Positions 17,750 through 36,117 of a stretch of DNA of 64,000 nt are shown one piece after another (the stretch's first letter is position 1; each line of letters begins with the position of its first letter). The notes under the pieces were generated by a model, which had not been told where the DNA came from, searched no databases, and worked only from the letters and a program-made list of their open reading frames with translations. Made by a program: the position numbers and the translations under genes. The stretch is from positions 1-64,000 of the forward strand of contig JAYKHS010000030.1 in assembly GCA_035285865.1 (NCBI GenBank), in the 5' to 3' direction. This DNA comes from Candidatus Sericytochromatia bacterium (GTDB lineage Bacteria > Cyanobacteriota > Sericytochromatia > S15B-MN24 > VGJW01).

Positions 17750-19801
17750 ATGATTTCTTTCGCTACTCGCTTGCTGCTCTTGCTTTCCGTCGTCGCATGT
17801 GGCCGTGCACCCGTTCTCGCGGGTGCCGAGACCGGGGCGCGCGCGGCGGCCGGCCTCGACCTCTCCGGCCCTTCGTCCGCGATGTTCGGAGACTGCCCCA
17901 ACTTCTCGCAGGTGGCCAATGGTGACGTCATGGCCGTGATCTCACGTGACTTCGGGCGCTTGTCGTCTCTGGGAGGACTCGTCGCGTGGCACGCGCCGCA
18001 GCTGACGGAGAATCGCCTGCGCTTGCTCACGGTTGGTTTGCACGACGGTCGCGGTCATCGCTGGGCGGAGAACTGGAAGCTGCTGGGGCAGCGTGTGGTA
18101 CCGGATACGGGCATCGTCGAGACCCGCCTGCAACATCCGGACCTGCCGCTCGTACTCGAACTCACCGATGTGGCGCACCGCGGCCTGCCCGGCATCATCC
18201 GGCGCGTGCGCCTGCAGCACGCCGGCAGCCAGCCGCTCCGGGACCTGCGTTTGACGGTCTTCGCGCACTTCACGCTGGATCGCACGGGCAAGGGAGATAC
18301 GCTGACCGTCGACACGTCGCGACGCCGCCTGGTTCAGACCAATCCGGACGAGGAGGTAAGTGCCGTGGTCGGTGTCTCTGCACCCGTGGCCGGCTGGCAG
18401 GCCGGACGCTCGCTGATGCGGGTCGGGTCTGGTGAGGATGCCTGGTTCGATGTGGCGGACGGTCGTCTGAAGGGCAGCGAGCGGGTTTCCGGGGTGGGTG
18501 CGAACGGGGCCTTGGTCATGGCCGTGCCGGAGCTGATGCCCGGATCGCGCTGGGAGACGGAGATTGCCGTGGCCACCGCCGCCGATGCCTCTCGCGGTCA
18601 CGCCGTGGTCGACAGGTTGCTCCAGGAGGGTTTCTCGACCGTGGCTGGTGCAGATGCCGTGCATTGGCGGACTTGGCTGGAGCGCTCGGTGGTGCCGGCG
18701 GGACTCGATGCCCGCGAGGCGGCCGTCGTGCGCAGGGCCCTCATCGTGCTGAACCAGTTGCAGGCCGGAACGGGTGGCGTGTTGGCATCCCCGTCGGCAC
18801 TGAGTCCGGCGTACAAGTATGTCTGGTTGCAGGACGCGGCTTTCGATGCCCGTGCCCTGATGGTTTCGGGGCATCGCGAGGAGGCTGCGGCCATCCTGCG
18901 CTTCCTTGCCAAGGTCCAGAAGCCGGACGGGGACTGGTGGGTCACCTACTTCTCGGATGGTCGCCCGAACCCGCTCTGGGAGCACGGTACCGAGTTCATG
19001 GGGGCCCATTTCGTGACGACTGCGGGCGCCTATCTCGCGACTTACGGGGTCGACGACACCGTGCGCGCCATCTGGCCGGCCGTGTCGCGGGCAGCTGGCT
19101 TCATGGAACGCCAGATGACGCCTTCGGGAATTCTTGTTCCTTGTCGGGATCTCTGGGAGACCTTCACCGACAAGTCGTGGACCTACACGAACGCTACTTT
19201 CGTCGGGGGGTTGGAGGATGCGGCGCGCATGGGCACCGCACTCGGCATGCAGGCCGAGGCCCGATCCTTCACCCGATCGGCGGCCGACCTGAGGCGTGAC
19301 ATCCTGGCGAAAATGGTCGTCGCGGACGGTGGGTGGCTGGGCAAGGGTCTGCGCCCCGGGGCCAGCCAGCCGGATCCGATCATCGATGCGTCGGTGGTGG
19401 GTGCCGGATGGCCCTATGGCCTCGTGCCCCTGGACCATCCGGTCATGACGGCCACCCTTGCTCGGGTCGAGACTCGGCTGTCCGTGCCCGGCGGGGGCAT
19501 CCGGCGGTATGAGGGGGACGGTTGGTACGGCGGCCAAGGTTGGCCCGAACTGCAGGACTGGATGGCCATCAGCCGCTCGGCCCGTGGTGAGCGGGCATCG
19601 GCGCTTGCCCACCACGCCACCAACACCGAGCGGGCGTGGACCACGGGCAGCCTGCAGATCGGCGAGGTCTTCGACGCCAATCGGCGCGTATTCCCCAGCG
19701 CCTTCCCGCTTGGCTGGGCGATGGCCAAGTACGTTCTGGCCAGCCATGCCCTGCATGGGCCGGCTCATCCGGTGCTCCCCGGCCGACCGGCTGGTCGCTG
19801 A
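17750..19801 (+). CDS. Glycoside hydrolase family 15 (glucoamylase-like) lipoprotein (683 aa)
   Basis: Lipobox VVAC; YKYVWLQD, DLWE, GIRRYEGDGWYGG and PLGWAMA motifs of the (alpha/alpha)6 GH15 domain. Confidence 0.85.
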   Translation: MISFATRLLLLLSVVACGRAPVLAGAETGARAAAGLDLSGPSSAMFGDCPNFSQVANGDVMAVISRDFGRLSSLGGLVAWHAPQLTENRLRLLTVGLHDGRGHRWAENWKLLGQRVVPDTGIVETRLQHPDLPLVLELTDVAHRGLPGIIRRVRLQHAGSQPLRDLRLTVFAHFTLDRTGKGDTLTVDTSRRRLVQTNPDEEVSAVVGVSAPVAGWQAGRSLMRVGSGEDAWFDVADGRLKGSERVSGVGANGALVMAVPELMPGSRWETEIAVATAADASRGHAVVDRLLQEGFSTVAGADAVHWRTWLERSVVPAGLDAREAAVVRRALIVLNQLQAGTGGVLASPSALSPAYKYVWLQDAAFDARALMVSGHREEAAAILRFLAKVQKPDGDWWVTYFSDGRPNPLWEHGTEFMGAHFVTTAGAYLATYGVDDTVRAIWPAVSRAAGFMERQMTPSGILVPCRDLWETFTDKSWTYTNATFVGGLEDAARMGTALGMQAEARSFTRSAADLRRDILAKMVVADGGWLGKGLRPGASQPDPIIDASVVGAGWPYGLVPLDHPVMTATLARVETRLSVPGGGIRRYEGDGWYGGQGWPELQDWMAISRSARGERASALAHHATNTERAWTTGSLQIGEVFDANRRVFPSAFPLGWAMAKYVLASHALHGPAHPVLPGRPAGR

Positions 19802-19879
19802 TCCCGTGTCGCTTTCCATCGGACTGTTGATTCGCAAGTCGCCCGGATGAAGGGGCGATAATCTCCGGGTGAAGATTCC

Positions 19880-19907
19880 TGTAACACCCTTGTAACGTCG
19901 CGGCAAC
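19880..19907 (+). promoter_or_regulatory. TGTAAC direct-repeat site 1 (11-bp period)
   Basis: TGTAAC 19880-85, TGTAAC 19891-96, degenerate GGCAAC 19902-07; upstream of the hydrolase gene. Confidence 0.65.
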
Positions 19908-19930
19908 AAGGTGTTCGGAGGCGGTCGCGG

Positions 19931-21250
19931 GTGGCGGCCTACGGGGAGATGCGGGTGCGGTCAGCAGGGACTGGATGGGTGCGGGGGCTCGCGGCCCTCG
20001 TGCTGTCCGCCGTGTTGCCGGGCTGTGGCGTCACGGGGTCTGGGGCAGCAAGCGCCACCCACGGTGCGGCAGGCGGAACGGCCGTTTCGGTCAAGGCGCG
20101 CGCCAAGGCCACCGACTACGGCATTGTCCGGACCGCCGGTCACAAGACTTGGGCCTTCATCGAGCGCATGGAGCACCGAGCCGCGTCCTTTCCCGATGAG
20201 GCGAGCCGACCGAATGGTCGCCAACGTGAGGACGCCATCGTCGCCGCTTTCGGCACGGAACGGCCCGCCTCGCGCGTTGTCCTGCTGCATGCGATGCCGG
20301 GCTGGGATCGCAAGGGCGAAGTGCCTGTGCTGCTGGTGCATGGCGCGCTGGCCGACGCCGACAGTGCCTGGATGGCGCCGCACGGCAAGCAGGGCTTGGC
20401 GCCGTGGCTCGCGGCGCGTGGCCGTGCCGTCTTCGCGGTAACCTTCGCCCATCGGCACGGAGACAATCTGCTGCAGGCAGAACACGTGGCGGGTGCCTTG
20501 GCCCGAATCCGTGAACTGACCGGCGCGTCTCGCGTGGACGTCGTCGCTCACTCCAAGGGAGTCGCGGCCGTGCGGGCACTGGCCAGCGGCGTCCGAATGC
20601 CATGGTGTCGAGCCTATGGCGGGGACATCCGCAAGTTGGTGCTGCTCGGCGGACCACTGCTGGGCATCGACTACACCTACCGACATCCCTCCGTCCACTT
20701 CGGCCTCGTGCCCGAGTTGGATCACCCGCTGCGCAATGCCCCGACGGCGTGGGAGCGTATGGTGGTCTTCGGCATGTGGAAGGACATCGGCGCCCAGTCC
20801 TTCATGACCGACCGCGGCAACTGTTTCCCGGGTCAGGCCCAGTTGCTGCATCGCTGGGACAAGCGCTTTCCCCTGTCCGCCATGGAGCCGGACGTCCATG
20901 CTACCTACCACGGCGGCAAGGGCCTGATCAGCGAGAGTCGGGGCATCGATGCGGCCATCGAGGCGGGTGGACGCTTCATCGAACGCCTGCGCCGGCATCC
21001 GCTCCCCAAGGGCTTGGACGTGGCGGTCGCTGCCGGTGACAGGGCGACCATGACGACGGTCCTGAACGAGACCGATGGTCCGTCGGACGGCGTGGTCTTC
21101 GTGGAGTCTGCGACCCACGTCGAAGACCTTCTGGCGGCTGGTGCCGATCTGGTGACCCGCGACGTCCTGCCGGTTAACCACATGGAGTTGCTCTACCACC
21201 CACGTTCGCAGGCGTGGCTGGCTGACGTGCTGGCCCGACCGGAGCTGTAA
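19931..21250 (+). CDS. Exported alpha/beta-hydrolase lipoprotein (lipase / possible PHA depolymerase; up to 439 aa)
   Basis: Lipobox LPGC; oxyanion LLVHG, nucleophile elbow AHSKG, SDGVV (Asp), NHMELL (His); immediately upstream of pha genes. Confidence 0.82.
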   Translation: MAAYGEMRVRSAGTGWVRGLAALVLSAVLPGCGVTGSGAASATHGAAGGTAVSVKARAKATDYGIVRTAGHKTWAFIERMEHRAASFPDEASRPNGRQREDAIVAAFGTERPASRVVLLHAMPGWDRKGEVPVLLVHGALADADSAWMAPHGKQGLAPWLAARGRAVFAVTFAHRHGDNLLQAEHVAGALARIRELTGASRVDVVAHSKGVAAVRALASGVRMPWCRAYGGDIRKLVLLGGPLLGIDYTYRHPSVHFGLVPELDHPLRNAPTAWERMVVFGMWKDIGAQSFMTDRGNCFPGQAQLLHRWDKRFPLSAMEPDVHATYHGGKGLISESRGIDAAIEAGGRFIERLRRHPLPKGLDVAVAAGDRATMTTVLNETDGPSDGVVFVESATHVEDLLAAGADLVTRDVLPVNHMELLYHPRSQAWLADVLARPEL

Positions 21251-21262
21251 CGGCGCTGTAAC
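21246..21262 (+). promoter_or_regulatory. TGTAAC direct-repeat site 2
   Basis: TGTAAC 21246-51 and 21257-62; the first copy overlaps the TAA stop of the hydrolase. Confidence 0.65.
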
Positions 21263-21319
21263 CGGGGCCCGGCAGCATCGGAACGTGGACGGCCCGAGCG
21301 CCGTCTCTCGTCTCCGAGG

Positions 21320-21775
21320 ATGGTACCGATGCCGGCCATGAGTCCGCTGGAAACCCTTGCCGCCCAACTCTTCCGCGAAGGCTATGCCTTGGCAGAAACG
21401 GTCGTCAGCAGGCCGCTGCAGGCTGCGCTCGGCACGGAAGCCGCCGGCCAGATGCTCAGTGCCGTGCGGGATTCCTACGCCCTCGGTCGCCAGACGGGTG
21501 ATGAAGCCCTCGAGCAGACCTGGGTGCGGATGCGGCTTGCGAGCCACGGAGAACTGGCCCGTGTGGCTGGACTCGTGGTGCAGGTCGATGACCGGGCGGC
21601 CGAGATCGAGGACCGCCTGGCTTCCCTGGAAGATCTCGTTCGCGCCCAGCATGCGCTGATTCAGGCTCAGGGGCAGCGTATCGAGGCGCTGTTGTCTCTG
21701 GTCGAGCGTCAGGGCACGGCGACCGGCAGGGATGTCGCCCCTGTGTCCCGGACCCCGCGCAAGCCCGGCGCCTGA
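21320..21775 (+). CDS. PHA synthase accessory subunit (PhaR/PhaE-like), up to 151 aa
   Basis: MRLASHGELARVAGLVVQVDDRAAEIEDRL coiled coil resembles the PhaR/PhaE C-terminus; next to a class III/IV-sized phaC; start may be 21329 or 21338. Confidence 0.65.
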   Translation: MVPMPAMSPLETLAAQLFREGYALAETVVSRPLQAALGTEAAGQMLSAVRDSYALGRQTGDEALEQTWVRMRLASHGELARVAGLVVQVDDRAAEIEDRLASLEDLVRAQHALIQAQGQRIEALLSLVERQGTATGRDVAPVSRTPRKPGA

Positions 21776-21827
21776 AATGTTTCCCCACCCCGGGCAGCAT
21801 GCTGCCCCTTTTTGCAGGAGGTTTCCG

Positions 21828-22112
21828 ATGGAGAAGATGGTCGACATGATGCAGCCTTGGATGGAGGCGATGAACCCCACCCGGCCGATGGTCGCGATGA
21901 TGCGCCAGGGGTTGGAGTCGATGGACGTGGCGGGTGCACGTTGGGAGGAAGGCGTGCGGCAGATGCTCGATTTCTGGTCTGTGGCCCGGAGGGACGCTGT
22001 CAAGGTCATCGGCGTCACGCTGGACACCGTGGCGACTGAGGCGCCCGCCTACGTTGGGCGTCTGGCCGACGTCATGACCGAGGCGACGAAGTCCCCCAAG
22101 TCCGCCGCATAG
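21828..22112 (+). CDS. Small helical protein, phasin-like (94 aa)
   Basis: RBS AGGAGG before ATG 21828; amphipathic Met/Ala-rich helices; sits between the PhaR-like gene and phaC. Confidence 0.55.
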   Translation: MEKMVDMMQPWMEAMNPTRPMVAMMRQGLESMDVAGARWEEGVRQMLDFWSVARRDAVKVIGVTLDTVATEAPAYVGRLADVMTEATKSPKSAA

Positions 22113-22137
22113 GCCGACGGTTCGAGGAATCACGAAG

Positions 22138-23202
22138 ATGGCGCGTCCGATGCTCCCCCTCTCAACCGACGAAGGCTTCGGCCCGGTCCTGAAGGCCCTG
22201 AAGGGCTTTCGCTCGGCCTTCCCGCAGCAGCCTGCCCGCGTGGGCCAGACTCCGAAGCAGGTCGTCTGGCGTCGCAACAAGGCAAAGCTCCTGCGCTACG
22301 AGGGGCAGGGGGAGCGTCGGCACGCCACTCCGGTTCTGTTCGTGTATGCGCTTATCAACAAGCCCTACATCCTGGACCTTCAGCCGGGGTCGAGCCTGAT
22401 CGAGTATCTGGTTGCCCAGGGCCATGATGTCTATCTGCTCGACTGGGGCGTACCCGGAGAGGAGGACGGCGGGATGACGCTGGCCGACATCGTGACGGGG
22501 ATGATGCCCTCGGCCGTCCGGGCTGCGTTGCGTTGTTCAGGGACAGAGCGCCTGACGATGTTCGGCTATTGCCAGGGGGGCACACTTGCCGCGATGTATG
22601 CGGCGCTGGACGAGGGGCGCACGTTGGCCAACCTGGTCCTGCTGACGACGCCCATCGACTTTGCCGAGGCAGGGCTCTACAGCAACTGGCTCAATCCCGA
22701 TCACGCCGACATCGATCGCCTTGCCGACAGCATGAAGTTGATTCCCGCCGAGTTGATGGACTTCGGGGCGAAGCTGCTCAAGCCGGTCCAGAACTGGGTC
22801 ACGCCCTACGTGAGGCTGTTCGAGAATCTGGATGACGAGGACTTCGTCGAGAGCTGGCGCGCCATGAACGGTTGGGTCGCGGATGGCATCCCGATGCCTG
22901 CCGAGGTCTATCGTCAGTGGGCCAAGGACTTCTATCAGGGCAACAAACTCGTGAAGGGCGAGGTCATGCTGGGAGCACGCAGGGTGGACCTCTCTCGCAT
23001 CACCTGCCCGCTCCTCGTTGTCCACGCCACCCTCGATCACATCGTGCCCACCTGTCAGTCGACGGTGGTGGCCGACCTTGTTTCCTCGACGGATGTGACG
23101 GTCCTGCCGGTCAAGGCCGGGCACGTCGGCGTGGTGGTCGGCAAGGGGCCGCGGAGGAACTTCTTCCCGCAACTGGACGCGTGGTTGCAAGTCCGCTCCT
23201 GA
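22138..23202 (+). CDS. phaC: Class III/IV polyhydroxyalkanoate synthase subunit PhaC (354 aa)
   Basis: VGQTPK, PVLFVYALINKPYILDLQPG, catalytic box GYCQGG, DHIVP, GHVG. Confidence 0.93.
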   Translation: MARPMLPLSTDEGFGPVLKALKGFRSAFPQQPARVGQTPKQVVWRRNKAKLLRYEGQGERRHATPVLFVYALINKPYILDLQPGSSLIEYLVAQGHDVYLLDWGVPGEEDGGMTLADIVTGMMPSAVRAALRCSGTERLTMFGYCQGGTLAAMYAALDEGRTLANLVLLTTPIDFAEAGLYSNWLNPDHADIDRLADSMKLIPAELMDFGAKLLKPVQNWVTPYVRLFENLDDEDFVESWRAMNGWVADGIPMPAEVYRQWAKDFYQGNKLVKGEVMLGARRVDLSRITCPLLVVHATLDHIVPTCQSTVVADLVSSTDVTVLPVKAGHVGVVVGKGPRRNFFPQLDAWLQVRS

Positions 23203-23243
23203 GCGGACTTGCGGCCGGTGCCCCTGCGGCCTAGCATGCCGGG

Positions 23244-24896
23244 GTGTCCGGCTTGTCGCATGGCGCGCTCGAACCCGATATCCGGGATGACGAGCCCTTC
23301 GATGACGGTGCCTTCGAGCCCGAGGCGGCCGTGCTCCCGGGTATCCTCAGCTCCAGCACGGTCCACGACCGCACGCAGTTCGAAGCCAACTTCGATTTCG
23401 ATGTCCTGCCGCCCGGTCCGGGGGTGCACAAGCGGTACGAGATCGACACGTGGTTCTTCGTGCCTCGGACGATGGGCATCCACGAGGGCACATACGGTCG
23501 GGACCAGTTCTTCGCCGACCTGACGAACTATCTGCGCCTGCGGACGCCTGAGGACGTCTCTTTCGAGCGGCTCGACCCCGAGAACTGGCATCTCCCTGCC
23601 CTCGACCGCTACCTCGCGGCCCATCTGGACACACCCGTCCGCCAGCGCATGGTGGGCCTCGTCCAGCAGGAGATCCGGCTCTTCGGATGCCTGATGAACA
23701 CCCAGTTCAAGCGCCTCTTGCGCGAGGCCGAAAGTGGGCAGGCCCTGCAGATGGTCGCGCGCCTGAAGGCTGTTCTCGATCGATATCGCATGACCTACGT
23801 CAGGCGCGTGATGAAGGAGCCTCTGCTCGTCGACCGTGAGGTGCGCCGGGCCCTTCGCCTGGTGGACGAATACATGTCCTACCGCTTCGAGGCGGTGGCC
23901 ATCCGTTGTCTGCGGCCTGTGGCGCGTGAGGGCAGCGCATTGGCTGCGGCCTTCCGCGCTTGGCTGGACGACGAGATCCGCCACAGGGCCGAGGCCGGTC
24001 TCGTTCGCCTCGACGATGATGCGACGGCTCCCGAGCAGGCCGAACAGCTGAACTACCGTCTTGGCCTGCTCAAGAAGTACGTGGCCGAGGTGCTGTTCCT
24101 GCGCGTTGCCAGCATCAAGCGCGAGCGCCTGTACCGCAATGTCATCGCGGCCATCGGCGCGGGCCTTGCCGCAGCCTGGGCCACGATGGCCGACATGCAG
24201 CGCCTCGCGATGATGAACGATCCCGAGCTTGGCTATCGCCTGGTCGTGGTCCTTGCCATCGGTGTCGTCGCCTATATCTTCAAGGACCGCATCAAGGAGC
24301 TGACCCGAGAATGGTTCAACGAGCGGCTCAAGAAATATCTCCCCGATTTCGATCTTCGCCTCACGTTTCCCCTCTTCGACGCCGACGGCACCATGCGCGA
24401 GATCGCCTTGGGCTCGGCGCGGGAGTTCATGCGCTTCCTGACACGTGGGGCACTCGCTGCGGACGTGCTCTACCTGCGGGACCTCGGCAACCGGCCCGAT
24501 CTGGACCCCGAGCGACACGAGACCATCATCCACTACAGCAAACGCCTCAGCTTCGAGGGCTTGCTGGGCGATCATCCGCTGCATCAGGTCCGGTACATCC
24601 GGGACGTCATGAGGCTCGACATCTCCGAATTCCTGACCAAGCTCTCGGACCCGCGCAAGACGCTGGGCTACTATCACCCGGATCGGGGGCTGCAGACGCT
24701 GAAGGCACCCCGGGTTTACCATGTGAACGTGGTCTTCCGTTATGCCGTAAGCCATCTGCTGGGCAATCGCCGCATCCATCGGGACGTCTCCTATGAGCGT
24801 GTCCGCATCGTGATCGACAAGGAAGGAATCCTGCGCATCGATTCGGTGGTGCCCCGCGGCCAGTTGGGTTATCGCGAGGAGAGCGGCGCTTCATGA
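23244..24896 (+). CDS. Uncharacterised membrane protein with two central TM helices (550 aa)
   Basis: TM pair VIAAIGAGLAAAWATM / LVVVLAIGVVAYIFKDRIKE; TAGCAT -10 lies 6 nt before the GTG; ATGA overlap with the next gene. Confidence 0.8.
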   Translation: MSGLSHGALEPDIRDDEPFDDGAFEPEAAVLPGILSSSTVHDRTQFEANFDFDVLPPGPGVHKRYEIDTWFFVPRTMGIHEGTYGRDQFFADLTNYLRLRTPEDVSFERLDPENWHLPALDRYLAAHLDTPVRQRMVGLVQQEIRLFGCLMNTQFKRLLREAESGQALQMVARLKAVLDRYRMTYVRRVMKEPLLVDREVRRALRLVDEYMSYRFEAVAIRCLRPVAREGSALAAAFRAWLDDEIRHRAEAGLVRLDDDATAPEQAEQLNYRLGLLKKYVAEVLFLRVASIKRERLYRNVIAAIGAGLAAAWATMADMQRLAMMNDPELGYRLVVVLAIGVVAYIFKDRIKELTREWFNERLKKYLPDFDLRLTFPLFDADGTMREIALGSAREFMRFLTRGALAADVLYLRDLGNRPDLDPERHETIIHYSKRLSFEGLLGDHPLHQVRYIRDVMRLDISEFLTKLSDPRKTLGYYHPDRGLQTLKAPRVYHVNVVFRYAVSHLLGNRRIHRDVSYERVRIVIDKEGILRIDSVVPRGQLGYREESGAS

Positions 24897-26536
24897 CCCC
24901 CTGGTTTCAGGCCCTCGGGGGGCTGGGTCTCTTCCTGCTGTCCTTGCGCCTGCTGACGGGGGCCCTGGACCGTACGCTGTCCGATCGCTTCAAGTCGCTC
25001 TTCCGGCATCGTCTGCAGGCCCCCTGGGCGATGGGCATGCTGGGGCTTGGGGCAACGGTGATGTTGCAGGCCAGCGCCGTGACCATCGTGGCGACGATGG
25101 GCCTGCTGCAGACCGGATGGCTCGGGCTCGAGCAGGCGTTCTTCGCGATGCTGGGTGCTACGGTCGGAACCACGCTCAAGGCGTGGGTGGCCGCAAGCTC
25201 CCACTCAGCACTCGGGCTCGCCTTGGTCGGCGTGACCAGCCTCGGCCTCGTGGCCGTTCGTTTCCAGCACCTCAGGGATGTGCTCGAGGCCTTCCTCGCC
25301 ATCGGCCTCTTCCTTGCATCACTCGAGATGCTGGCAGGCGGCTCGGCGGCCCTGCTGGCCGAGGCTGACCTGCTGTCGGCTCTTGGGCGCCTCGAGGGAA
25401 CGGGCATCGGGCCTCAGCTGCTGGCCGTGCTGCTCGGCTTCGGCCTGACGGTCGCGATGCAGTCCTCCAGTTCCGTGGTCTTCCTCGCCATGGACCTCGC
25501 GGCGCGTGGTGTCGTGGACCTTCCGGCCGGCGCCGCCCTGTTGCTGGGTGCCAATGTCGGCACGGCCATCACGCCGTTGCTGGCCTCGGTCGAGTACGAG
25601 ACCCGCGTCCGCCAGTTGGCGCTCAGTCATTTGCTGATCAAGGTCGCCGGCGTGTTCGGAGCCATGCTGATCTTCCCCTGGTTCCTCGGCTTCGTGACGG
25701 CTCCCGTGCGCCACCTGTGGCCGGATGCAGCCATCGGCTGGCAGCTTGCGGCTTTTCATACGGGCTTCAACGTGGTCAATGCCCTGATCTGGGCGGGATT
25801 GGCCGCCTTTGCGCTCAAGGCCGTGCGCTGGCTCTGGCCGGATCCCGAACTGGCCGGTGCACAGGCCTTGCCCCTTGCTGTCCGCCGGATGCTGGTGTCC
25901 GCACCTGATCTCGCCCTTGCCGAAGCCCGCAGGCTGCTGGACGACATGCGGCACATGGCCCGCGATGTCATCGACCCTTGTCTGGATCGCCTCTCCGGGC
26001 GTGTTCAGGATGCCCTGACGCGGAGACGCGTGCGCTCGTTCAGAGCCTTTGAAGCGGTACGCGAGAGCCTGTTGGACCTGCTGATGCAGTTGGGTCAGCG
26101 CGCCAGAGGCCCCCACGTCCAGCAGGAGATTGGTATGATGCTCCGCGAGGTGGGCCAGTGCGGTATGCTGCACGACCTCGCCACGGATCTGGAGAGTCAT
26201 CTGGTCACCGGTCTCATGGTGGATCGTCACCCGGTTCCAGCGGCGTTGCAGGCTGAAGTCGTCGCACTTCGGTCCGAACTCGATGCATTCTGGCTGGCCG
26301 TGCTGTTTCCGGGACAGCCGCGCGAAGCTCTGCCCGACCTGGATGCCCGCTTCGATCGCCTCGACAATGAACTCGTGTTGCATCTTCGTCATGCCGACGG
26401 CCGCCATCACGGCGCCGATCTCTGGTTGCAAGATGCCGTGGCGCAGTTGCGCCAGATTTGCCTGTCCCTGCGTGGTCTCGTCCGGAATGCGGATCCGGGT
26501 GCCACGAATGCTCATCCGCAAGGAGTGCCGTCCTGA
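24893..26536 (+). CDS. Na+/Pi cotransporter family protein with PhoU-like C-terminus (547 aa)
   Basis: GGLGLFL, QASAVT / QSSSSV repeats, LGANVGT, FHTGFNV. Confidence 0.88.
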   Translation: MTPWFQALGGLGLFLLSLRLLTGALDRTLSDRFKSLFRHRLQAPWAMGMLGLGATVMLQASAVTIVATMGLLQTGWLGLEQAFFAMLGATVGTTLKAWVAASSHSALGLALVGVTSLGLVAVRFQHLRDVLEAFLAIGLFLASLEMLAGGSAALLAEADLLSALGRLEGTGIGPQLLAVLLGFGLTVAMQSSSSVVFLAMDLAARGVVDLPAGAALLLGANVGTAITPLLASVEYETRVRQLALSHLLIKVAGVFGAMLIFPWFLGFVTAPVRHLWPDAAIGWQLAAFHTGFNVVNALIWAGLAAFALKAVRWLWPDPELAGAQALPLAVRRMLVSAPDLALAEARRLLDDMRHMARDVIDPCLDRLSGRVQDALTRRRVRSFRAFEAVRESLLDLLMQLGQRARGPHVQQEIGMMLREVGQCGMLHDLATDLESHLVTGLMVDRHPVPAALQAEVVALRSELDAFWLAVLFPGQPREALPDLDARFDRLDNELVLHLRHADGRHHGADLWLQDAVAQLRQICLSLRGLVRNADPGATNAHPQGVPS

Positions 26537-27246
26537 TGATTGCTGCCCTGATGCCTCGGGAACGCAAGTTCTTCGACCTGCTCGAGACTTCGGCCCGACA
26601 GATGCATCGGCGTGCCGAGTGCGTGGCCCGTCTGCTGCGCGAGCCAGATGAGGCACTCGTTGCCGAGATCAATGCGGAGCGGAGAGCGATGCACGGGGAC
26701 CATACCGTCACGCACCGGATCATCGATCAGCTCAACGCGACCTTCGTCACGCCCATCGACCGCGAGGACATCCACGCGCTCGCCTTCAAGCTCGACGACA
26801 TCGTCAACACCATCCTGCTGCTGGGCGATCGCTTCTCGCTGTACCGGATCGTGCCCTCCAGCGAGATGCTGGCCTTGGTGGACCTGCTGGTCCGCTGTGC
26901 CCACGAGATCGTCGTCGGTCTGGAGAAGCTGCGTTCGCCTCGCCTGATGCGCGAAATCCAGGCGCACTGCGATCACATCTACAAGCTGGCCATCGATGCC
27001 GATGACCTCATGCGCCGGGCGCTGGCCCAGTTGTACGGGATTCCGCTGAACTCGCCGACCGAGGTGCTGGTGTCAGCGGCTGCCGGCCTTCCGGCCACGC
27101 ACATGCCGCAGGGGCGGGACCTCCAGCCGGCGGACGTCGTGACCATCCTGAAGTCCCGCGAGGTCCTGGACCTCATGAAGAAGTCGGTCGAACGCTGCGA
27201 GGTCGTCGGTGACCTGTTGCACGGCGTGGCGGTCAAGCATGCCTGA
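26536..27246 (+). CDS. DUF47 / PhoU-like phosphate transport regulator (236 aa)
   Basis: TGATG overlap; MPRERKFFDL, LNATFVTPIDREDI, C-terminal AVKHA. Confidence 0.88.
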   Translation: MIAALMPRERKFFDLLETSARQMHRRAECVARLLREPDEALVAEINAERRAMHGDHTVTHRIIDQLNATFVTPIDREDIHALAFKLDDIVNTILLLGDRFSLYRIVPSSEMLALVDLLVRCAHEIVVGLEKLRSPRLMREIQAHCDHIYKLAIDADDLMRRALAQLYGIPLNSPTEVLVSAAAGLPATHMPQGRDLQPADVVTILKSREVLDLMKKSVERCEVVGDLLHGVAVKHA

Positions 27247-28240
27247 AACGGCACTCGTCCTGATGGGCCTGGTGGTTTTCCTGGCTCTGGCCTTCGACTT
27301 CATCAACGGTTTCCACGACACGGCCAACGCCATCGCGTGCTCGGTATCGACAGGGGTGCTGACGCCTCGCCTGGCCATCATCCTCGCGGCCATCATGAAC
27401 CTCGCCGGGGCGATGTGGTCGACCAAGGTCGCAGCCACGATCGGCAAGGGCATCATCGATCCGGCGATGGCGAGTTCCTCGTTGGTGATTGCGGCTCTGG
27501 TCTCCGCCATCGGCTGGAACTTGCTGACGTGGTGGTGGGGGCTGCCCTCCAGCAGCAGCCATGCGCTCATCGGCGGGGTCATGGGGGCTGCGGTGGCCGG
27601 CCATGGCCTCGGTGCGCTCAAGGTGGCCGGCATCCTCAAGATCGTCCAGTCCCTGATCGCCTCTCCTGTCCTCGGCTTCGTGTTGGCCGTGTCCCTCATG
27701 ATCGGGCTGTTCTGGATGTTCAGGCGCTGGGTGCCCAGCGCCGTCAAGGCGACATTCAGACCGCTGCAGATTCTGGCTGCCGCGTTTATCTCCTTCACCC
27801 ATGGGGCGAACGATGCCCAGAAGAGCATGGGCATCATCCTGCTGGCCCTCATCGGGGCCCACCACTTGCAGGCGGGTGCGGGCGTCCCCTTCTGGGTCAA
27901 GGTCTCCTGTGCGCTTGCGATGGCCCTCGGTACCTCCGTCGGCGGCTGGAAGATCATCAAGACCATGGGCTCCCGGGTGACGCGCCTCGAGCCCATCAAC
28001 GGGTTTGCTGCCGATCTTGCCTCGGCTTCGATCATCCTCTCCGCGACGCACTTGGGCCTCCCGGTCTCGACGACCCATGTGGCGGCAAGTTCGATCATGG
28101 GCGTGGGATCGGCGCGCCGCGTCAGTGCCGTGCGCTGGGGCAAGGCCGGTGAGATGTTCGTGGCCTGGATCATCACGATTCCCATTACCTCGGCCATCGC
28201 GGCCCTCGTCTTCCTGATCGCGCGGATGCTGGTGGGTTAG
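27239..28240 (+). CDS. pit: Inorganic phosphate transporter, PiT family (333 aa)
   Basis: NGFHDTANAIA, GLPSSSSHAL, HGANDAQK, GLPVSTTH signatures. Confidence 0.93.
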   Translation: MPETALVLMGLVVFLALAFDFINGFHDTANAIACSVSTGVLTPRLAIILAAIMNLAGAMWSTKVAATIGKGIIDPAMASSSLVIAALVSAIGWNLLTWWWGLPSSSSHALIGGVMGAAVAGHGLGALKVAGILKIVQSLIASPVLGFVLAVSLMIGLFWMFRRWVPSAVKATFRPLQILAAAFISFTHGANDAQKSMGIILLALIGAHHLQAGAGVPFWVKVSCALAMALGTSVGGWKIIKTMGSRVTRLEPINGFAADLASASIILSATHLGLPVSTTHVAASSIMGVGSARRVSAVRWGKAGEMFVAWIITIPITSAIAALVFLIARMLVG

Positions 28241-28244
28241 GGCA

Positions 28245-31160
28245 GTGACTCCCGGCGTCCCCGGTTCCTGGCCGCGTCAGGTCAGCCCGTACGTCGCTCG
28301 GGAGCGCTTGCTCGAGCGGATCTCGGGCCACGAGGCGGGTGCCCGAATCGAACTGGTGGCGGGGGCCGGAGGCGGGAAGACCGTGCTCGCCACGGACTGG
28401 GCCACGCGCTGGCGTGGACCGGTTGTCTGGTTGTCGCTCGGTAGCAGGCACGCCGACCCTCAGGCGATGGCCTCCGCCCTGTGTGCTGCGGCGCGTCGTA
28501 TCCAGTCAGGTGTCGACCTCGCCGCCCAAGAGTTGCTGGCGCGGCTGGGCGGAGCTCAGGATCACGGGCGCGAGGCACTCTGGGCACTCGCGGCCGATGT
28601 CCCGGAAGACCAGGCTTGGGCCTGGATTGTGGATGGTATCGAAACCCTCCCCGAGGGAGCGGCTGCTGCCGTCCTGCTCGATGTCTTCCTTGACGCGCTG
28701 CCCGAGTGCCACGGGATTCTGCTGTCGGGACGACAGCGTCCGGTCGGCACCGGGTGGCGCAAGGCGCGGCTCGAGGGCCGCGTGACGGAGATCGGGGGCG
28801 GAGACCTGCAGTTCACGCGCGCGGAGATTGCCGAACTGGCCTCGGCGCTCGGGCGCTCCGGGGATGCCACGGCGATCGAGCGGGTCTGGCGCCGGACCTC
28901 GGGCTGGCCGCTGGGGGTCTCGCTGGCGCTCAGGGGCGACGCGGAGCGCCTCGCTTCCGACCTCGAGGGTTATCTGGTCGACGAGGTCCTTTCGGGGCTG
29001 CCTGACGAAACCGCCGTTCTGTTGGAGACCCTGGCCCCTTTGGAGCGGATTCCTCCCTCGCTGGTGCTGGGCCTGGGGGCACGCGCCACGGCCGCCCGCA
29101 TGGCCGATCTGGTACAGCTCGGGTTGTTGTTGCCCCCAGCGGGTGACGATGCCTTCGTCCTGCCCGAGGCCCTCAGGGAAGTCCTGCTTGCGCGGTTGGA
29201 CGCTCGAGGCGCGCGAGAAGCGGCCTGCAGGGCTCTGCTGACGCTGTTGCTGGAGGCTGGTCTCGATGACGAGGCCTATCGTCTGGCCAGGGCCGTCGGG
29301 GATCGTGAACTGGCCGTGACCTTGCTGGCGCGGCTTGCTCCCGGATGGTTGGCAGAGGGGCATTGGCATCGCGCGAGGACCGAACTGGAAGCGCTCGAAG
29401 CCACCGGATCTGAGCCGAGCGTGGCCTTGCGCTGGCTCCGCGCCGAACTGGCACGCGCGGAAGGCCGGTATCCGGAGGCCTTGCGCGCCTTGGACAAGGC
29501 CGAGACGTGCCACGATGCGTTGCCGCCGTGGCCTGCGTTGCTGCTGGTTGCCCGGGCGGGCGTGCATCTGGAGACGGTGGAGCCGTTGGCTGCCGCTGCA
29601 GCCCTCGACAGGGCCCAGCAACTGGCCGGTGAGGGCGGGCTCTCCACGGCACTTCAACTGGCGCGGGCGGAAAATGCTCTGAACCTCGGTATGCCCGGAG
29701 AGGCTGCCGCGATACTGGCCGGGATGGATGGCGAGACGCCTGAGGTGCGTCTCGTGCGCGCCCGGCTGGCACTTCGGACAGGCCGGTTGGCCGAGGCATC
29801 CCGTTTGCTGCCATCCGTCGCGGTGCTTTCCGGCCGGGGCGGTCACCGCAATCCGGCCCTGCTGGACGCTCTGGTGGGTGCCTTGACCGGTCGCGAGACC
29901 GAGGCGCTGGAACGGGCGGAGGCCGTGATCGCCGCCGCCGAGCGTGCCGCTTCCCCGGTGACCCGCGTCGTGGCTCTGACGCGTGCCGGCCATGCCCTTG
30001 CCGCGCTGGCACGAGGTCGCGAGGCCGCTGCGCGCTACGAAGAGGCCTTGCGGATGGTTGCGCGCCTTGGTGTGCCGCGCCTGGGGGCAGAGGCAGAGTT
30101 GGGCCTCGGGATGCTGGCGGGGCAACGGGACGCGGCGCTGGTTCGCATCGACCGCGCAGCCGAACTGGGCCGGCAGACGGGAGATGCGTGGTTCGAGGCG
30201 CTTGCCGCGACGGCCGCTGCCCTCGTCGACCCCGGGGATGATCGACGTGAAGCGGCCATGCTGTTGGCCGATCGGGTCGGGGATCCCTGGTTGGCCGGAC
30301 TGCCGGCATCCGGGGGGGCAGGGTGGCTGCGCACGCCATCCCGCGAGGCCTCCCTCGGTGGTGCACGGCCCGGGTTGATGATCCGCACGTTCGGGGGCCT
30401 CGTGGTCCAGCGCGAGGGTCAGGCCATCCCGTCAAAGGCGTGGACGCGCGACAAGGCTCGCCAGCTGCTGGCCGTGCTCGCGGCTCATCCGGACGAGGTC
30501 CTGCCTAAGGTGCGCCTGATCGATCTGCTCTGGCCGGACATGGAGCCCGAGCAGGCGGATGGCACCTTCCGTGTGGTGCTCAATGCCTTGCAGCGCATCG
30601 TGGAGCCGGAGCGGGCAGCCAAGACCGAACCCCGTTTCATCCGCAGGGAGGGGCCGGGTTATCGCCTTGCCGATGCACCGGACGTCGAGGTCGACATCCG
30701 GTCGCTTGGCCGTCTGCTCGAACAGGCCCTCAGTCTGCCTGATGACGACCCGGCCCTTCTGCCCTTGCTGGCGCGCATCCCGTCCTGGGCTCCGGGGCCG
30801 TTTCTGCCCGAGATGCTGCTGGACGAACCCTGGTGCGATCGGCTGCGGGATCAGTTCGAGACGACCCTCGTGGCTGCGGGCTTGCGTTGGGCGCGTTTGG
30901 CCTGGCAGGCTGAGGACATGGCCATGGCGGGGGCTGCCGCGGCCTTTCTCGTGGGCCGTGACCCTGCGCTCGAGGAGGCATGGCGCCTCTGGATGGCCGT
31001 GCAGGCGAGGCTCGGGGAGCGATCCCTAGCTTTGCGGACGTGGGATCGTTGCGTGGCTGCCATGGCACGCGAGCTGGACGCCGTTCCCGAGCGGGCCACC
31101 GAGGAGCTGGCGGAGGCCATCCGGGCGGGCCGTCCGCTGCCGGACCCCTGGGTGGCGTAA
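28245..31160 (+). CDS. Large transcriptional activator: MalT-like NTPase, TPR region, C-terminal OmpR-type winged helix and BTAD (SARP) (971 aa)
   Basis: P-loop AGAGGGKT, VVWLSL, TSGWPLG; C-terminal IRTFGGLVV..WTRDKARQLL..LWPD..DPALEEAWRLWM..ELDAVP. Confidence 0.88.
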   Translation: MTPGVPGSWPRQVSPYVARERLLERISGHEAGARIELVAGAGGGKTVLATDWATRWRGPVVWLSLGSRHADPQAMASALCAAARRIQSGVDLAAQELLARLGGAQDHGREALWALAADVPEDQAWAWIVDGIETLPEGAAAAVLLDVFLDALPECHGILLSGRQRPVGTGWRKARLEGRVTEIGGGDLQFTRAEIAELASALGRSGDATAIERVWRRTSGWPLGVSLALRGDAERLASDLEGYLVDEVLSGLPDETAVLLETLAPLERIPPSLVLGLGARATAARMADLVQLGLLLPPAGDDAFVLPEALREVLLARLDARGAREAACRALLTLLLEAGLDDEAYRLARAVGDRELAVTLLARLAPGWLAEGHWHRARTELEALEATGSEPSVALRWLRAELARAEGRYPEALRALDKAETCHDALPPWPALLLVARAGVHLETVEPLAAAAALDRAQQLAGEGGLSTALQLARAENALNLGMPGEAAAILAGMDGETPEVRLVRARLALRTGRLAEASRLLPSVAVLSGRGGHRNPALLDALVGALTGRETEALERAEAVIAAAERAASPVTRVVALTRAGHALAALARGREAAARYEEALRMVARLGVPRLGAEAELGLGMLAGQRDAALVRIDRAAELGRQTGDAWFEALAATAAALVDPGDDRREAAMLLADRVGDPWLAGLPASGGAGWLRTPSREASLGGARPGLMIRTFGGLVVQREGQAIPSKAWTRDKARQLLAVLAAHPDEVLPKVRLIDLLWPDMEPEQADGTFRVVLNALQRIVEPERAAKTEPRFIRREGPGYRLADAPDVEVDIRSLGRLLEQALSLPDDDPALLPLLARIPSWAPGPFLPEMLLDEPWCDRLRDQFETTLVAAGLRWARLAWQAEDMAMAGAAAAFLVGRDPALEEAWRLWMAVQARLGERSLALRTWDRCVAAMARELDAVPERATEELAEAIRAGRPLPDPWVA

Positions 31161-31172
31161 CGGACGTGTAAC
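31156..31172 (+). promoter_or_regulatory. TGTAAC direct-repeat site 3
   Basis: CGTAAC 31156-61 and TGTAAC 31167-72; overlaps the regulator's TAA stop; upstream of the acyl-CoA ligase. Confidence 0.62.
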
Positions 31173-31210
31173 GGCGTGGGTCCAAGGTGGGTTCACAGGA
31201 GGACCGACCG

Positions 31211-32755
31211 ATGGCTCTGGGACGCTGGCTGGACCGCTGGGGCACCTATGCTCCGAACAAGACCGCCCTCGTGGATGCCCACACCGGCAGGCGCTGGAGT
31301 TACGAGGCTCTGGCATTCAGGGTCCGCAAGCTGGCCGGTGCACTGGCTGCACGCTGGGGTGTCGGCCCGGGGGACAGGGTGGCGGTGCTGGCGCACAACA
31401 CGCCTGAAACGCTGGAGTTGCTCTTTGCGTGTGCCCGTCTCGGGGCCATCCTCGTCCCCGTCAACTTCCGCCTCGCTTCGGCCGAGGTGGCCTATGTCCT
31501 CGGTGATGCCGAGCCCCGGGTGCTGTTCTACGGTCCGGAATGCCGCGAACTGGCATGGCAGGCGCTGGCACTCCAGCCTGGTGCACAGCCGATTCCCTTC
31601 GTGGCGGACCGCGAAGAGGAGGCTTATTCGGATGTCCTGGCCTCCGGGACCGAGATCTCCGGCCGCGAGGTCGGTGCCGATGATCCGCTGCTGATTCTCT
31701 ACACGTCGGGCACGACGGGCCGTCCCAAGGGTGCCGTCCTGACCCACGGTACCGTCACGTGGAACGCGGTCAACACCCAGGTCGGTTGGGACCTGCGCCA
31801 CGACGACATCACGCTGACGCACACCCCCTTCTTCCATACCGGAGGATTGAACGTCCTGACCACACCCCTGTTTCACATCGGCGGCACGGTCGTGATGCAG
31901 CGGTCCTTCGATGCGGCCGAGGCGCTCGCGCTGGTGGCGCGGGAGCGTTGCACGGTGCTCTTCGCCGTCCCCACGATGTTCCAGATGATGGCCGAGGCAC
32001 CCGGGTTCACCGAGGCGGATCTTTCGAGCGTGCGCTTCTTCATTACCGGTGGAGCGCCGTGTCCCGTGCCGCTGATTCACCTCTACGACACCCGCGGCAT
32101 CGTCTTCAAGCAGGGCTATGGCCTGACGGAGGCGGGCCCCAACTGCTTCACGCTGGATGCCCGGGATGCCGTCCGCAAGGCCGGTACCGTCGGGTTCCCC
32201 AACATGCACGTGGAGATTCGCGTCGTCGACGAGGAGGGGCGCGACGTGCCTCGGGGTGATGTCGGGGAGTTGCTCATCCGCGGGCCCCATGTATTCCCGG
32301 GCTATTGGCGCAACGAGCAGGCGACGCAGGCTGCCTTGCGGGATGGTTGGCTGCACACGGGCGATCTGGTCTGCCAGGACGACGAAGGCTACATGCGCAT
32401 CGTCGATCGCAAGAAGGACATGTATATCTCCGGTGGCGAGAACGTCTATCCTGCCGAGGTGGAGCGGGTCCTGCTCCAGCACCCTGCCGTGCGCGAGGTG
32501 GCCGTCATCGGGGTCCCTGACGCCAAGTGGGGTGAGGTCGGCCGGGCCTTCGTGGCGCTGGAGGCCGGGATGAAGGTGTCCGCGACCGAACTCGATGCGT
32601 GGCTTTCGGGGCAACTGGCCCGCTACAAGGTGCCGCGCAGCTATGCCTTCCCGACGGCCCTGCCCCGCACCGCCACCGGCAAGGTCCACAAGCCCGGACT
32701 CTCCGGCCTGGACCTCGAGTGCCACGTTGCCGATCGTCCCCGTACCCGCGCCTGA
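31211..32755 (+). CDS. Acyl-CoA synthetase / fatty-acid-CoA ligase (514 aa)
   Basis: RBS AGGAGG before ATG 31211; YTSGTTGRPKG, GYGLTE, GWLHTGD, TATGKV. Confidence 0.93.
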   Translation: MALGRWLDRWGTYAPNKTALVDAHTGRRWSYEALAFRVRKLAGALAARWGVGPGDRVAVLAHNTPETLELLFACARLGAILVPVNFRLASAEVAYVLGDAEPRVLFYGPECRELAWQALALQPGAQPIPFVADREEEAYSDVLASGTEISGREVGADDPLLILYTSGTTGRPKGAVLTHGTVTWNAVNTQVGWDLRHDDITLTHTPFFHTGGLNVLTTPLFHIGGTVVMQRSFDAAEALALVARERCTVLFAVPTMFQMMAEAPGFTEADLSSVRFFITGGAPCPVPLIHLYDTRGIVFKQGYGLTEAGPNCFTLDARDAVRKAGTVGFPNMHVEIRVVDEEGRDVPRGDVGELLIRGPHVFPGYWRNEQATQAALRDGWLHTGDLVCQDDEGYMRIVDRKKDMYISGGENVYPAEVERVLLQHPAVREVAVIGVPDAKWGEVGRAFVALEAGMKVSATELDAWLSGQLARYKVPRSYAFPTALPRTATGKVHKPGLSGLDLECHVADRPRTRA

Positions 32756-32782
32756 AGCGCATCACGCAAGGAATCGTTCATC

Positions 32783-33529
32783 ATGACCACGCTCGCTTCC
32801 CACGTTGCCCTCGTCACCGGCGGTGCCCGGGGCATCGGTCGTGCCACCGCAGCCGCCCTGGCCGGGGCCGGGGCCCGGGTTTCCGTCTGGGATCGGGATG
32901 CCGCAGCCGTGGATGAGGCCGTTGCCGCCCTCGCCGCAGCCGGTCATGACGTCACCGGCATGGCCGTGGACGTCACGGACCGGACGTCGGTGCAGGAGGC
33001 CGTCGCGCGGCTTGCCGAGGCAGAGGGACGGCTCGACATCGTCGTCAACAATGCAGGCATCACCATGGATGCGCGCCTCGAGAAGATGACGGAAGCACAA
33101 TTCGATACGGTCATCGACGTCAATCTCAAGGGCGTGTTCAATGTGACGCAGGCGGCCATCGGGCCCATGATCACCGCAGGCAACGGGGGGGTCGTCCTCA
33201 ATGCGTCCAGCATCGTGGGTCGTTTCGGCAACTTCGGACAGACGAACTATGCGGCCACCAAGGCCGGAGTCATCGCGATGACGCAGACCTGGGCGCGCGA
33301 ACTTGCCAAGCATCGCATTCGCGTCAACGCCGTGGCCCCCGGTTTCGTCCTGACGGACATGACCGGGAAGATGCCCGAGAAGGTCCTCGGGATGATGGCA
33401 GACAAGACTCCGCTCGGCAGACTGGGAAGCCCCGAGGACATTGCGGCGGCCTACCTCTTCCTTGCGGGGCCCGGTGCGTCGTTCATCACGGGCCAGGTGC
33501 TCGGGGTCGATGGAGGACTGGTCCTGTGA
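32783..33529 (+). CDS. Beta-ketoacyl reductase (FabG / PhaB-type SDR; 248 aa)
   Basis: TGGARGIG, NNAGI, NFGQTNYAATKAG (YxxxK), NAVAPGF. Confidence 0.9.
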   Translation: MTTLASHVALVTGGARGIGRATAAALAGAGARVSVWDRDAAAVDEAVAALAAAGHDVTGMAVDVTDRTSVQEAVARLAEAEGRLDIVVNNAGITMDARLEKMTEAQFDTVIDVNLKGVFNVTQAAIGPMITAGNGGVVLNASSIVGRFGNFGQTNYAATKAGVIAMTQTWARELAKHRIRVNAVAPGFVLTDMTGKMPEKVLGMMADKTPLGRLGSPEDIAAAYLFLAGPGASFITGQVLGVDGGLVL

Positions 33530-34788: not shown

Positions 34789-34833
34789 GCGTGGCCGGCT
34801 CAAGGGGCGCGCTTGTCCCAGCCATGGCATACT

Positions 34834-36107: not shown

Positions 36108-36117
36108 GAGACTTGCC

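Follow-up and report, generated by a model that had tools for sequence, protein, structure and literature searches.

The stretch of DNA analysed here, below called the window, comprises positions 1 to 64,000 of contig JAYKHS010000030.1 of a Candidatus Sericytochromatia bacterium (C30:1–64000 of G000 in our numbering, a genome of 2,824,092 bases in 32 contigs). It carries a gene cluster for polyhydroxyalkanoate (PHA) synthesis, a gene for a protein of 971 amino acids (aa) with an ATPase part and a DNA-binding end, which we call the regulator, and three tandem pairs of the word GTAAC, which we call boxes. We put at roughly 80% the probability that the GTAAC pairs serve as promoter elements in a small conserved regulon for carbon storage and that the adjacent regulator, as predicted from its sequence, binds the tandem pair and activates transcription.

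All genes and boxes of the locus lie on the + strand. Box 1 (TGTAAC-N5-TGTAAC, 19880–19896) stands before the gene of an exported alpha/beta-hydrolase (19931–21250, likely start ATG 19949), whose product carries a lipoprotein signal (LPGC) and the nucleophile motif AHSKG. Box 2 (TGTAAC-N5-TGTAAC, 21246–21262) stands before the phaR-phaC operon, which opens with a PhaR-type PHA synthase subunit of 151 aa (21320–21775, TIGR02132, likely start ATG 21329) and continues with a small conserved 126-aa protein of no known family in a phasin-like position (21732–22112, likely start near 21828) and with PhaC, the catalytic subunit of a PHA synthase of class III/IV type (22138–23202, TIGR01836). An insert of phosphate genes follows, encoding a 550-aa membrane protein, a Na/Pi cotransporter, a PhoU_div protein and a PHO4/Pit transporter (23244–28240), and then the regulator gene (28245–31160), whose product combines a MalT-like nucleotide-binding oligomerization domain (NOD), a TPR-like middle part, a winged helix-turn-helix (wHTH) and a BTAD domain. 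Box 3 (CGTAAC-N5-TGTAAC, 31156–31172) stands before the ligase operon (31187–34788), which encodes an acyl-CoA ligase (likely start ATG 31210 behind GGAGG), a short-chain dehydrogenase resembling FabG and acetoacetyl-CoA reductase, and a transporter of the major facilitator superfamily (MFS). The next gene encodes an exported 421-aa protein of no known family (34842–36107); it is syntenic within the genus only and is possibly co-transcribed. Gene assignments were made by Pfam and NCBIfam profile searches.

A predicted −10 hexamer lies 10 nt after each of the boxes: CAAGGT (19907–19912) after box 1, CAGCAT (21273–21278) after box 2 and CAAGGT (31183–31188) after box 3, a role that we infer from the position-specific conservation of A and T described below. 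The distal half-site of box 2 includes the stop codon of the hydrolase gene (TAA, 21248–21250), and that of box 3 includes the stop codon of the regulator gene (TAA, 31158–31160). In many related genomes, too, the TAA of the upstream gene, often the regulator's own, falls inside the distal GTAAC (L013 14689, L014 14249, L020 12233, L021 8592 and L022 12715). Such overlap of stop codon and operator is an unusually tight packing; the host genomes are GC-rich, and TAA stops are rare in them.

We scanned both strands with a strict definition of the box, YGTAAC-N5-TGTAAC, and a looser one, GTAAC-N6-GTAAC, referred to as the exact box. The strict pattern has three matches in the window, all on the + strand, and none of 100 dinucleotide-preserving shuffles of the window contains a match. 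The preliminary description of this locus had reported repeats with an exact 11-bp period at 19880, 21246 and 31156, which the scans of the window and of the whole genome bear out. It had also proposed a genome-wide scan for the frequency of the motif, and that frequency is not background: the exact box has three matches in the genome, which are boxes 1–3, against 0.12 expected from the 825 single GTAAC words, whereas the control word GTCAC forms 5 pairs in the whole genome against 6.4 expected. Since the pattern had been defined after the sites were seen, we also ran a word-free scan for any 5-mer followed by N6, the same 5-mer, N10 and [TC]ANNNT. It returned 121 matches of 106 words, and GTAAC was the sole word with at least two matches within 20 kb. 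When one mismatch is allowed, 21 further sites appear genome-wide, three of them with the −10 signature, and the still looser pattern GTNAC-N6-GNAAC has 67 matches in the genome. The clustering of boxes at this locus is far beyond chance.

The arrangement is conserved in the genus. Orthologues of the regulator are 68% identical in G003, 67% in G001 and 53% in G002, where the gene is cut by a contig end. In both G001 and G003 each of the three genome-wide matches of the box occupies one of the syntenic positions; G002 also has three, two at the upstream positions and one at the very start of the contig with the ligase operon. Box 1 is kept as an exact copy in all three. In the intergenic alignments the half-sites are invariant while the spacers and most flanks vary, so that the preliminary expectation that the motif would be conserved at orthologous loci holds. 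Immediately upstream of box 1, a block at 19840–19879 is kept in four of four genomes of the genus (CGCAAGTC ... GAAGG..CGATAA. ... CGGGTGAAG). It holds the word GATAAT (GATAAG in G002) 20 nt before box 1, which could be a second promoter or the site of another factor.

Beyond the genus, we examined an order-wide set of 26 genomes from four families (99.6 Mb in total). It contains 91 exact boxes; 43 share a contig with a regulator orthologue and lie within 10 kb of it, against an expectation of 0.4, these neighbourhoods making up 0.48% of the 99.6 Mb. In G015 all seven boxes surround the regulator on one contig (43486–58002), heading seven units that run both ways; four of four boxes in G009 and four of five in G011 are near the regulator. 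G023, whose regulator orthologue is 47% identical, has a single box in its genome, between regulator and ligase; in this genome, which is 81% complete, the regulator, the box and the ligase operon are present and phaC was not found. A tblastn map of 19 loci, all of which have the regulator in the cluster, places boxes before phaR-phaC, ligase-FabG-MFS, hydrolase, MFS and FabG genes. Relatives that carry a regulator orthologue have the box at equivalent promoters.

A phaC orthologue occurs in 18 of the 26 genomes, and in 17 of these a box on the same strand lies within about 1.1 kb upstream; in the eighteenth, G007, phaC begins at a contig edge. Four genomes (G010, G013, G018 and G026) lack orthologues of both phaC and the regulator (no match, or a best E above 1e-18) and contain 1, 0, 0 and 0 boxes, respectively. 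G017 has phaC and boxes with no regulator match; its contig ends just after the box, at the point where its relative G015 has the regulator. In G008 all that is left of phaC is two short pieces lying between a box and the regulator (G008:C11, L021 4823–5350), with both boxes and the regulator intact. In genomes of other orders of the class, boxes are not in excess of a reversed-pattern control.

For the alignment of promoters we used 45 boxes from 18 genomes, in which the core of the box is invariant by construction; box 3 of G002 (L029), 14 nt from a contig end, was excluded. At positions outside the search pattern, A occupies +27 in 45/45 sites, T occupies +31 in 41/45, and T or C occupies +26 in 42/45; these conserved columns amount to a TANNNT hexamer, placed exactly 10 nt downstream of the proximal GTAAC. 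The distal GTAAC is preceded by T in 31/45 sites and the proximal one in 36/45, and G follows the proximal one in 36/45; the end of the conserved 7-mer, TGTAACG, is 9 nt away from the −10 hexamer (8 nt if it is framed as GTAACGN). No conserved −35-like hexamer was found 16–18 nt from the −10 hexamer in these sites, and columns +3 to +8 are poor in information. In six promoters a third GTAAC stands 13 nt upstream.

One could suppose that GTAAC is instead the −35 element of an alternative sigma factor of the extracytoplasmic-function (ECF) type, in which AAC is common, or that the repeats are non-regulatory remnants of mobile or repeated elements. We regard both as very improbable. The word occurs in two helically phased copies with a housekeeping-type TANNNT at a fixed 10 nt from the proximal copy, and the spacing to the −10 hexamer (10 or 21 nt) is neither that of ECF sigma factors nor that of sigma-70. 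Moreover, the boxes lie on the coding strand at promoter positions before 45/45 mapped units, and their spacers and flanks vary, unlike those of a mobile element.

The geometry is instead that of promoters activated by SARP proteins. According to the accessible text of PMC10936776, the direct repeats of SARP promoters are spaced by 11 or 22 bp, and 8 bp separate the 3' repeat from the −10 element; the afs box, bound by AfsR, lies at −40 to −19; a pair of SARP protomers binds there in adjacent positions and touches sigma region 4; and the NOD and TPR parts are inhibitory until ATP binds. The same rule describes the 45 boxes, with a period of exactly 11 and a proximal 7-mer that ends 8–9 nt before TANNNT.

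The regulator has the corresponding domains. Its NOD (residues 10–422) matches NF003420, the MalT model, with E 1.9e-18, the 65.9 bits being far below the equivalog cut-off of 537; the structure of the MalT NOD (PDB 8bob) matches residues 10–298 with E 1.3e-10, and the Walker A residues G42, G44 and K45 and the Walker B residue D130 are invariant in 14 orthologues. The middle part gives weak matches to TPR_16 (E 0.0018) and TPR_19 (E 0.018). At the C-terminus, the SARP domain occupies about residues 710–971 of 971 and consists of Trans_reg_C (PF00486, residues 736–808, 30450–30668; 27.5 bits against a cut-off of 26.2, and 31.2 bits in the genome scan) and BTAD (PF03704, residues 851–960, 30795–31124; 39.3 bits against a cut-off of 22.1). 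Of the NTPase-TPR-wHTH-BTAD architecture given in the preliminary description, the NTPase, wHTH and BTAD parts thus stand on domain matches, and the TPR part is weakly matched. Neither a Response_reg (receiver) domain nor a GerE/LuxR domain was found in the regulator. An AlphaFold (AF2) model of residues 682–971, built on 15 orthologues, has a pLDDT of 88.5; its six best Foldseek matches in the PDB are AfsR (8k60, 8hvr) and EmbR (2ff4, 2fez), with E of 7e-9 to 4.5e-8 and TM scores of 0.59–0.70, and the next matches are TPR proteins with E above 3e-3. The recognition-helix segment DGTFRV.LN.L is invariant across the order, in which overall identity of the regulator is 35–40%. The close database relatives of the regulator belong to Candidatus Sericytochromatia, one record being named Candidatus Tanganyikabacteria.

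On this basis we propose the following mechanism. Transcription would start about 7 nt after the predicted −10 hexamer, close to 19919, 21285 and 31195 for the three promoters, which would place the boxes at about −39 to −18; two SARP domains would sit on the two half-sites over roughly this interval and replace the absent −35 element, in the way that AfsR acts at the afs box. Until ATP and some metabolite are bound, the N-terminal part, with ATPase and sensor, would hold the DNA-binding end inactive. As the regulator gene ends the operon headed by box 2, induction would be self-reinforcing.

The same protein might instead bind the boxes as a repressor or dual regulator that occludes the core promoter. 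The estimated position of the boxes, over the region of RNA polymerase, would allow this, and the GATAAT-containing block conserved upstream of box 1 in genus g1 could serve as a second promoter. Repression is nevertheless disfavoured by the lack of a conserved −35-like hexamer at the proper spacing and by the weak −10 hexamers of the genus (CAAGGT, CAGCAT), which are typical of activator-dependent promoters; furthermore, the fold and the geometry match AfsR, an activator that acts from the same position, and the BTAD domain is present. We consider a repressor or dual role improbable, though less so than the sigma-factor and repeat-remnant explanations, and retain activation by the regulator as the preferred reading.

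The link between recognition helix and box extends to a second phylum. We searched one genome per species (185,579 species) with two conserved peptides of the regulator, W[GT]R[ED]KARQL and D[GQ]TFRV[AV]LN, chosen automatically from its alignment, the latter being the recognition helix. The scan returned 21 loci, 17 of which have at least one exact box, where at most 0.02 would be expected per locus; three others (L075, L076 and L083) have a one-mismatch box and a −10 hexamer directly after the regulator gene, and L079 has no box. Seven of the 21 loci are labelled Chloroflexota (Anaerolineae, Anaerolineales, Ardenticatenaceae, Promineifilaceae): five have an exact box, one a one-mismatch box and one none, and five of the seven also carry homologues of phaC and/or the ligase. 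Thus proteins that share the helix and are about 30% identical adjoin the same DNA word and the same kinds of genes in a second phylum. At two of the Chloroflexota loci (L078 and L080), three GTAAC words in 11-bp phase occur upstream of the regulator gene on the opposite strand, and TGTAAT-N5-TGTAAT-N..-TACAAT precedes the regulator gene itself, possibly as a weaker autoregulatory box.

The genome encodes four STAND-SARP genes, and the paralogues of the regulator have repeats of their own. The paralogue on contig C22 (1208 aa; AAA_22, TPR_MalT with E 1.2e-13, Trans_reg_C and BTAD) belongs to an operon (L031 2626–8898) of a lipoprotein, a Menorin-like protein, the paralogue and a Rieske oxygenase, and this operon is headed by GTAAG-N6-GTAAG-N10-CATGAT, the repeat lying at G000:C22:178587–178602 (L031 2588–2603). 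The GTAAG-N6-GTAAG pair occurs once per genome in G000–G003, always a few kb from the C22-type paralogue, and the C22 paralogue has a recognition helix different from the regulator's. The paralogue on contig C13 (1009 aa, ending at C13:18870) is flanked by both genome matches of GGGAGGT-N4-GGGAGGT (G000:C13:14588–14605 and 20464–20481, − strand), and the one match of this pair in G001 is on the contig of its C13-type paralogue. For the fourth paralogue, the candidate ACGGCAA-N4-ACGGCAA is unique in G000 but absent from G001–G003, and we do not count it as support. A private repeat for each paralogue is expected if the STAND-SARP proteins read the repeats, and not if a shared response regulator does.

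These results bear on the explanation that the boxes are read by a classical response regulator of the OmpR/PhoB family (WalR, RpaB, PhoB or GlnR-like), with the STAND-SARP protein binding elsewhere or acting indirectly. The WalR consensus is TGTWAH-N5-TGTWAH, into which TGTAAC-type half-sites at an 11-bp period fit, the accessible literature on PhoB and VicR also contains the word TGTAAC, and the genome encodes 10 Trans_reg_C proteins of the size of response regulators. Yet a global regulator would be expected to have sites before its canonical target genes as well, and here the exact box is confined to one locus: it stands before no pst/pho gene, nor any other gene, outside the locus in this genome. 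The preliminary description had named the motif before pst/pho genes elsewhere as a finding that would speak against its proposal, and this was not found. The degenerate pattern of the WalR type has three matches in the genome, two of which are these boxes, and the HLR1 pattern of RpaB has none. In addition, the boxes track the regulator gene in two phyla, and two paralogues have different private repeats. We therefore judge reading by a response regulator to be unlikely, although less remote than a repressor role of the STAND-SARP protein itself. Two related ideas were rejected: control by GlnR, PhoP or a Pho box was set aside on the absence of the exact box elsewhere in the genome, and an NtcA-type palindrome was ruled out, the repeats being direct and not inverted.

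With the regulator as the preferred reader of the boxes, the targets in this genome would be an exported esterase, the PHA synthase operon with its inserted phosphate transporters, and the operon of acyl-CoA ligase, reductase and MFS importer. The synthase genes show the features of a class III/IV operon, namely a short PhaC (about 355 aa) and a PhaR partner subunit. PhaC scores 363.4 bits against TIGR01836, 1.9 bits under the cut-off of 365.3. TIGR02132 matches 10 of 11 orthologues of the 151-aa protein (best E 6.9e-24), the copy in the window itself reaching E 0.003; the L024 row, whose matched stretch has a stop codon, was excluded from the PhaR alignment. Judged by these profile matches, the 151-aa protein, phaR-like in the preliminary description, is the Bacillus-type PHA synthase subunit PhaR and no DNA-binding regulator. 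The other proteins of the locus have no DNA-binding Pfam domain, even at E up to 1, and neither the regulator nor any locus protein has a Pfam or NCBIfam match to the PhaR, PhaQ or PhaD regulator families.

The hydrolase was tried as a PHA depolymerase and rejected in this role, as family-I lipases rank first in the PDB profile search (E 1e-8) and PhaZ7 comes at about 1e-4. Its AF2 model is mediocre (pLDDT 62.9), and Foldseek returns generic alpha/beta-hydrolases; on these matches the protein is likely to be a generic exported esterase or lipase. L014 was excluded from the hydrolase alignment, and the L018 and L024 references were trimmed to end before stop codons.

From 21320 to 31160, consecutive genes overlap or are separated by gaps of at most 41 nt, which argues for one long operon that starts from box 2 and has the regulator gene last; the phosphate genes, accordingly spaced, look co-transcribed with phaC rather than separately promoted. 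They had been described as lacking the repeat and having a −10 element of their own. The first part stands, no box with up to one mismatch being found before the phosphate genes of the locus; the second is unconfirmed, since the consensus scan does no better there than in shuffles. Scans of 19000–37000 with terminator and promoter consensus sequences gave matches no commoner than in shuffled sequence, and the sole promoter-like match, itself no more than shuffles give, falls inside the 550-aa open reading frame. The phosphate insert between phaC and the regulator gene occurs only in G000–G003. Phosphate transport may be co-expressed with the PHA synthase in this genus, which is reminiscent of polyphosphate-accumulating organisms. 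Between the phaR stop and the likely start codon of the gene behind it (near 21828) lies a GC-rich hairpin, GGGCAGCATGCTGCCC, followed by CTTTTTG (21792–21817). It could act as a partial terminator and so determine subunit ratios, terminator-like matches in the region not being above shuffles.

In other genomes of the order, exact boxes distant from the regulator indicate further candidate targets. We read the −10 region of 33 of them, omitting the 8 matches of G014 (where the reversed-pattern control gives 13) and the contig-end matches L043 and L062; 14 of the 33 show the A/T signature of the −10 hexamer. The distant loci include L034, L035, L040, L041, L045 and L060 (in G004, G005, G008, G016 and G022). 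Distant boxes also head phaR-phaC and ligase-MFS genes on other contigs. Further ones stand before an esterase of the polyhydroxybutyrate-depolymerase family with a lipoprotein signal (G004; also G005, where the hexamer fails the −10 rule), inorganic pyrophosphatase (G008), malate synthase (G016), isocitrate lyase (G022) and a 377-aa alpha/beta-hydrolase (G019 and G021); an acetate kinase gene lies behind a box with a shifted −10 hexamer. These gene identities suggest that in larger genomes the regulon reaches acetate and glyoxylate-shunt metabolism. Because of the exported esterase, MFS importer, CoA ligase and reductase found here, and of the target genes in relatives, the likely role of the regulon, as far as predicted gene functions tell, is to couple the uptake and activation of organic acids or polyester breakdown products to PHA synthesis.

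Several points weigh against the proposed regulon and its activation by the regulator. Of the 91 exact boxes in the order, 48 are distant from the regulator, and 19 of the 33 distant boxes that were read have no −10 signature and may be chance matches. A search of sequencing runs listed no RNA run that contains this DNA. In the 45-box alignment the cores are invariant by construction, and 11 of the 45 sites come from one genus. Since the 21 loci of the cross-phylum scan were picked by helix-containing peptides, that scan tests the link between helix and box, and its homologues are not a random sample. The half-site resembles the consensus sites of WalR and RpaB-type regulators, and the 10 OmpR-family proteins of response-regulator size could in principle read such repeats. 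Regulator and targets co-occur, and a phyletic profile cannot separate binding by the regulator from binding by a housekeeping factor. Finally, the box overlaps the core promoter, a position also compatible with repression.

Among the closest known systems are AfsR and the other large SARPs of Streptomyces (8k60, 8hvr). The regulator shares with them an OmpR-type winged helix followed by BTAD, the modelled fold being nearest to AfsR and EmbR; a STAND-type ATPase, here with a putative repeat sensor; and a predicted operator of two 11-bp-phased direct repeats over the −35/spacer region, at nearly the position of the afs box (−40 to −19). The order of domains differs, large SARPs having the SARP domain, NOD and TPR in that order, while here the order is reversed and the SARP domain is C-terminal. 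Also, the ATPase of AfsR is of the NB-ARC type and that of the regulator MalT-like, and SARPs belong to actinobacteria and antibiotic clusters, whereas the regulator occurs in Sericytochromatia and has relatives in Chloroflexota, beside PHA synthase and carbon-assimilation genes. In the accessible text of a 2024 review (PMC10972967), SARPs are said to be 'exclusively found in actinobacteria', and each class described there (small, medium and large SARPs and SARP-LALs) has its SARP domain at the N-terminus, a feature that the regulator does not have.

With MalT and related STAND regulators, the regulator has in common an N-terminal P-loop NOD, a helical-repeat sensor (putative in the regulator) and a C-terminal DNA-binding domain, and by analogy its activation would be expected to depend on an inducer and ATP; the output of MalT and LAL proteins is, however, a LuxR-type helix-turn-helix, and that of the regulator a SARP domain (wHTH and BTAD). 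The operators of WalR/VicR and RpaB (HLR1) are likewise TGTAAC-like direct repeats bound by OmpR-family winged helices, but these are response regulators with receiver domains and genome-wide regulons, whereas the regulator has no receiver and its box is at one locus in this genome.

As a locally encoded regulator of PHA genes it resembles PhaR, PhaQ and PhaD (and PhaM and PhaF). PhaR, PhaQ and PhaD are, in contrast, small proteins and mostly repressors, while the regulator is a 971-aa ATPase and a predicted activator. The available text of a 2021 review of PHA regulation lists PhaR, PhaQ, PhaD and PhaM-type regulators, which are small granule-associated or TetR-like proteins and mostly autoregulated repressors, and neither MalT nor SARP occurs in that text; this agrees with the view of the preliminary description that classical PHA control uses proteins of the PhaR/PhaD/PhaQ type. 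In the open-access literature searched, we found no account of PHA regulation in Sericytochromatia beyond incidental mentions, none joining SARP with PHA regulation, and no description of a protein with a MalT-type NOD and a C-terminal SARP domain. What is new here is a defined putative operator, a predicted regulon and the cross-phylum conservation of a STAND-SARP protein with reversed domain order outside actinobacteria.

A wider interpretation, to which we give somewhat less than even odds, is that the regulator represents, as its first example, a so far undescribed class of MalT-type STAND sensors, spread over more than one phylum, with SARP output and private 11-bp-phased operators (GTAAC, GTAAG, GGGAGGT). 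Its GTAAC member would be the master activator of PHA storage and of acetate and fatty-acid assimilation in Sericytochromatia and Anaerolineae, in place of granule-sensing repressors of the PhaR type.

If this is true, SARPs are neither actinobacterial nor tied to antibiotics. The locus offers a complete and testable triplet of regulator, operator and regulon for a reversed-order SARP-type protein predicted to govern primary carbon storage. With an operator so short and exact and of such fixed geometry, the prediction can be tested with purified domain and synthetic DNA, with no need for cultivation. The private operator words of the paralogues suggest orthogonal ligand-gated promoters, which could serve engineering, for example in the control of bioplastic production. 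For the hosts, uncultured non-photosynthetic relatives of cyanobacteria that have this system in common with Chloroflexota, the box would be a simple readout of the genes co-regulated with PHA, among them esterases and the glyoxylate shunt, to which this genus adds phosphate transporters.

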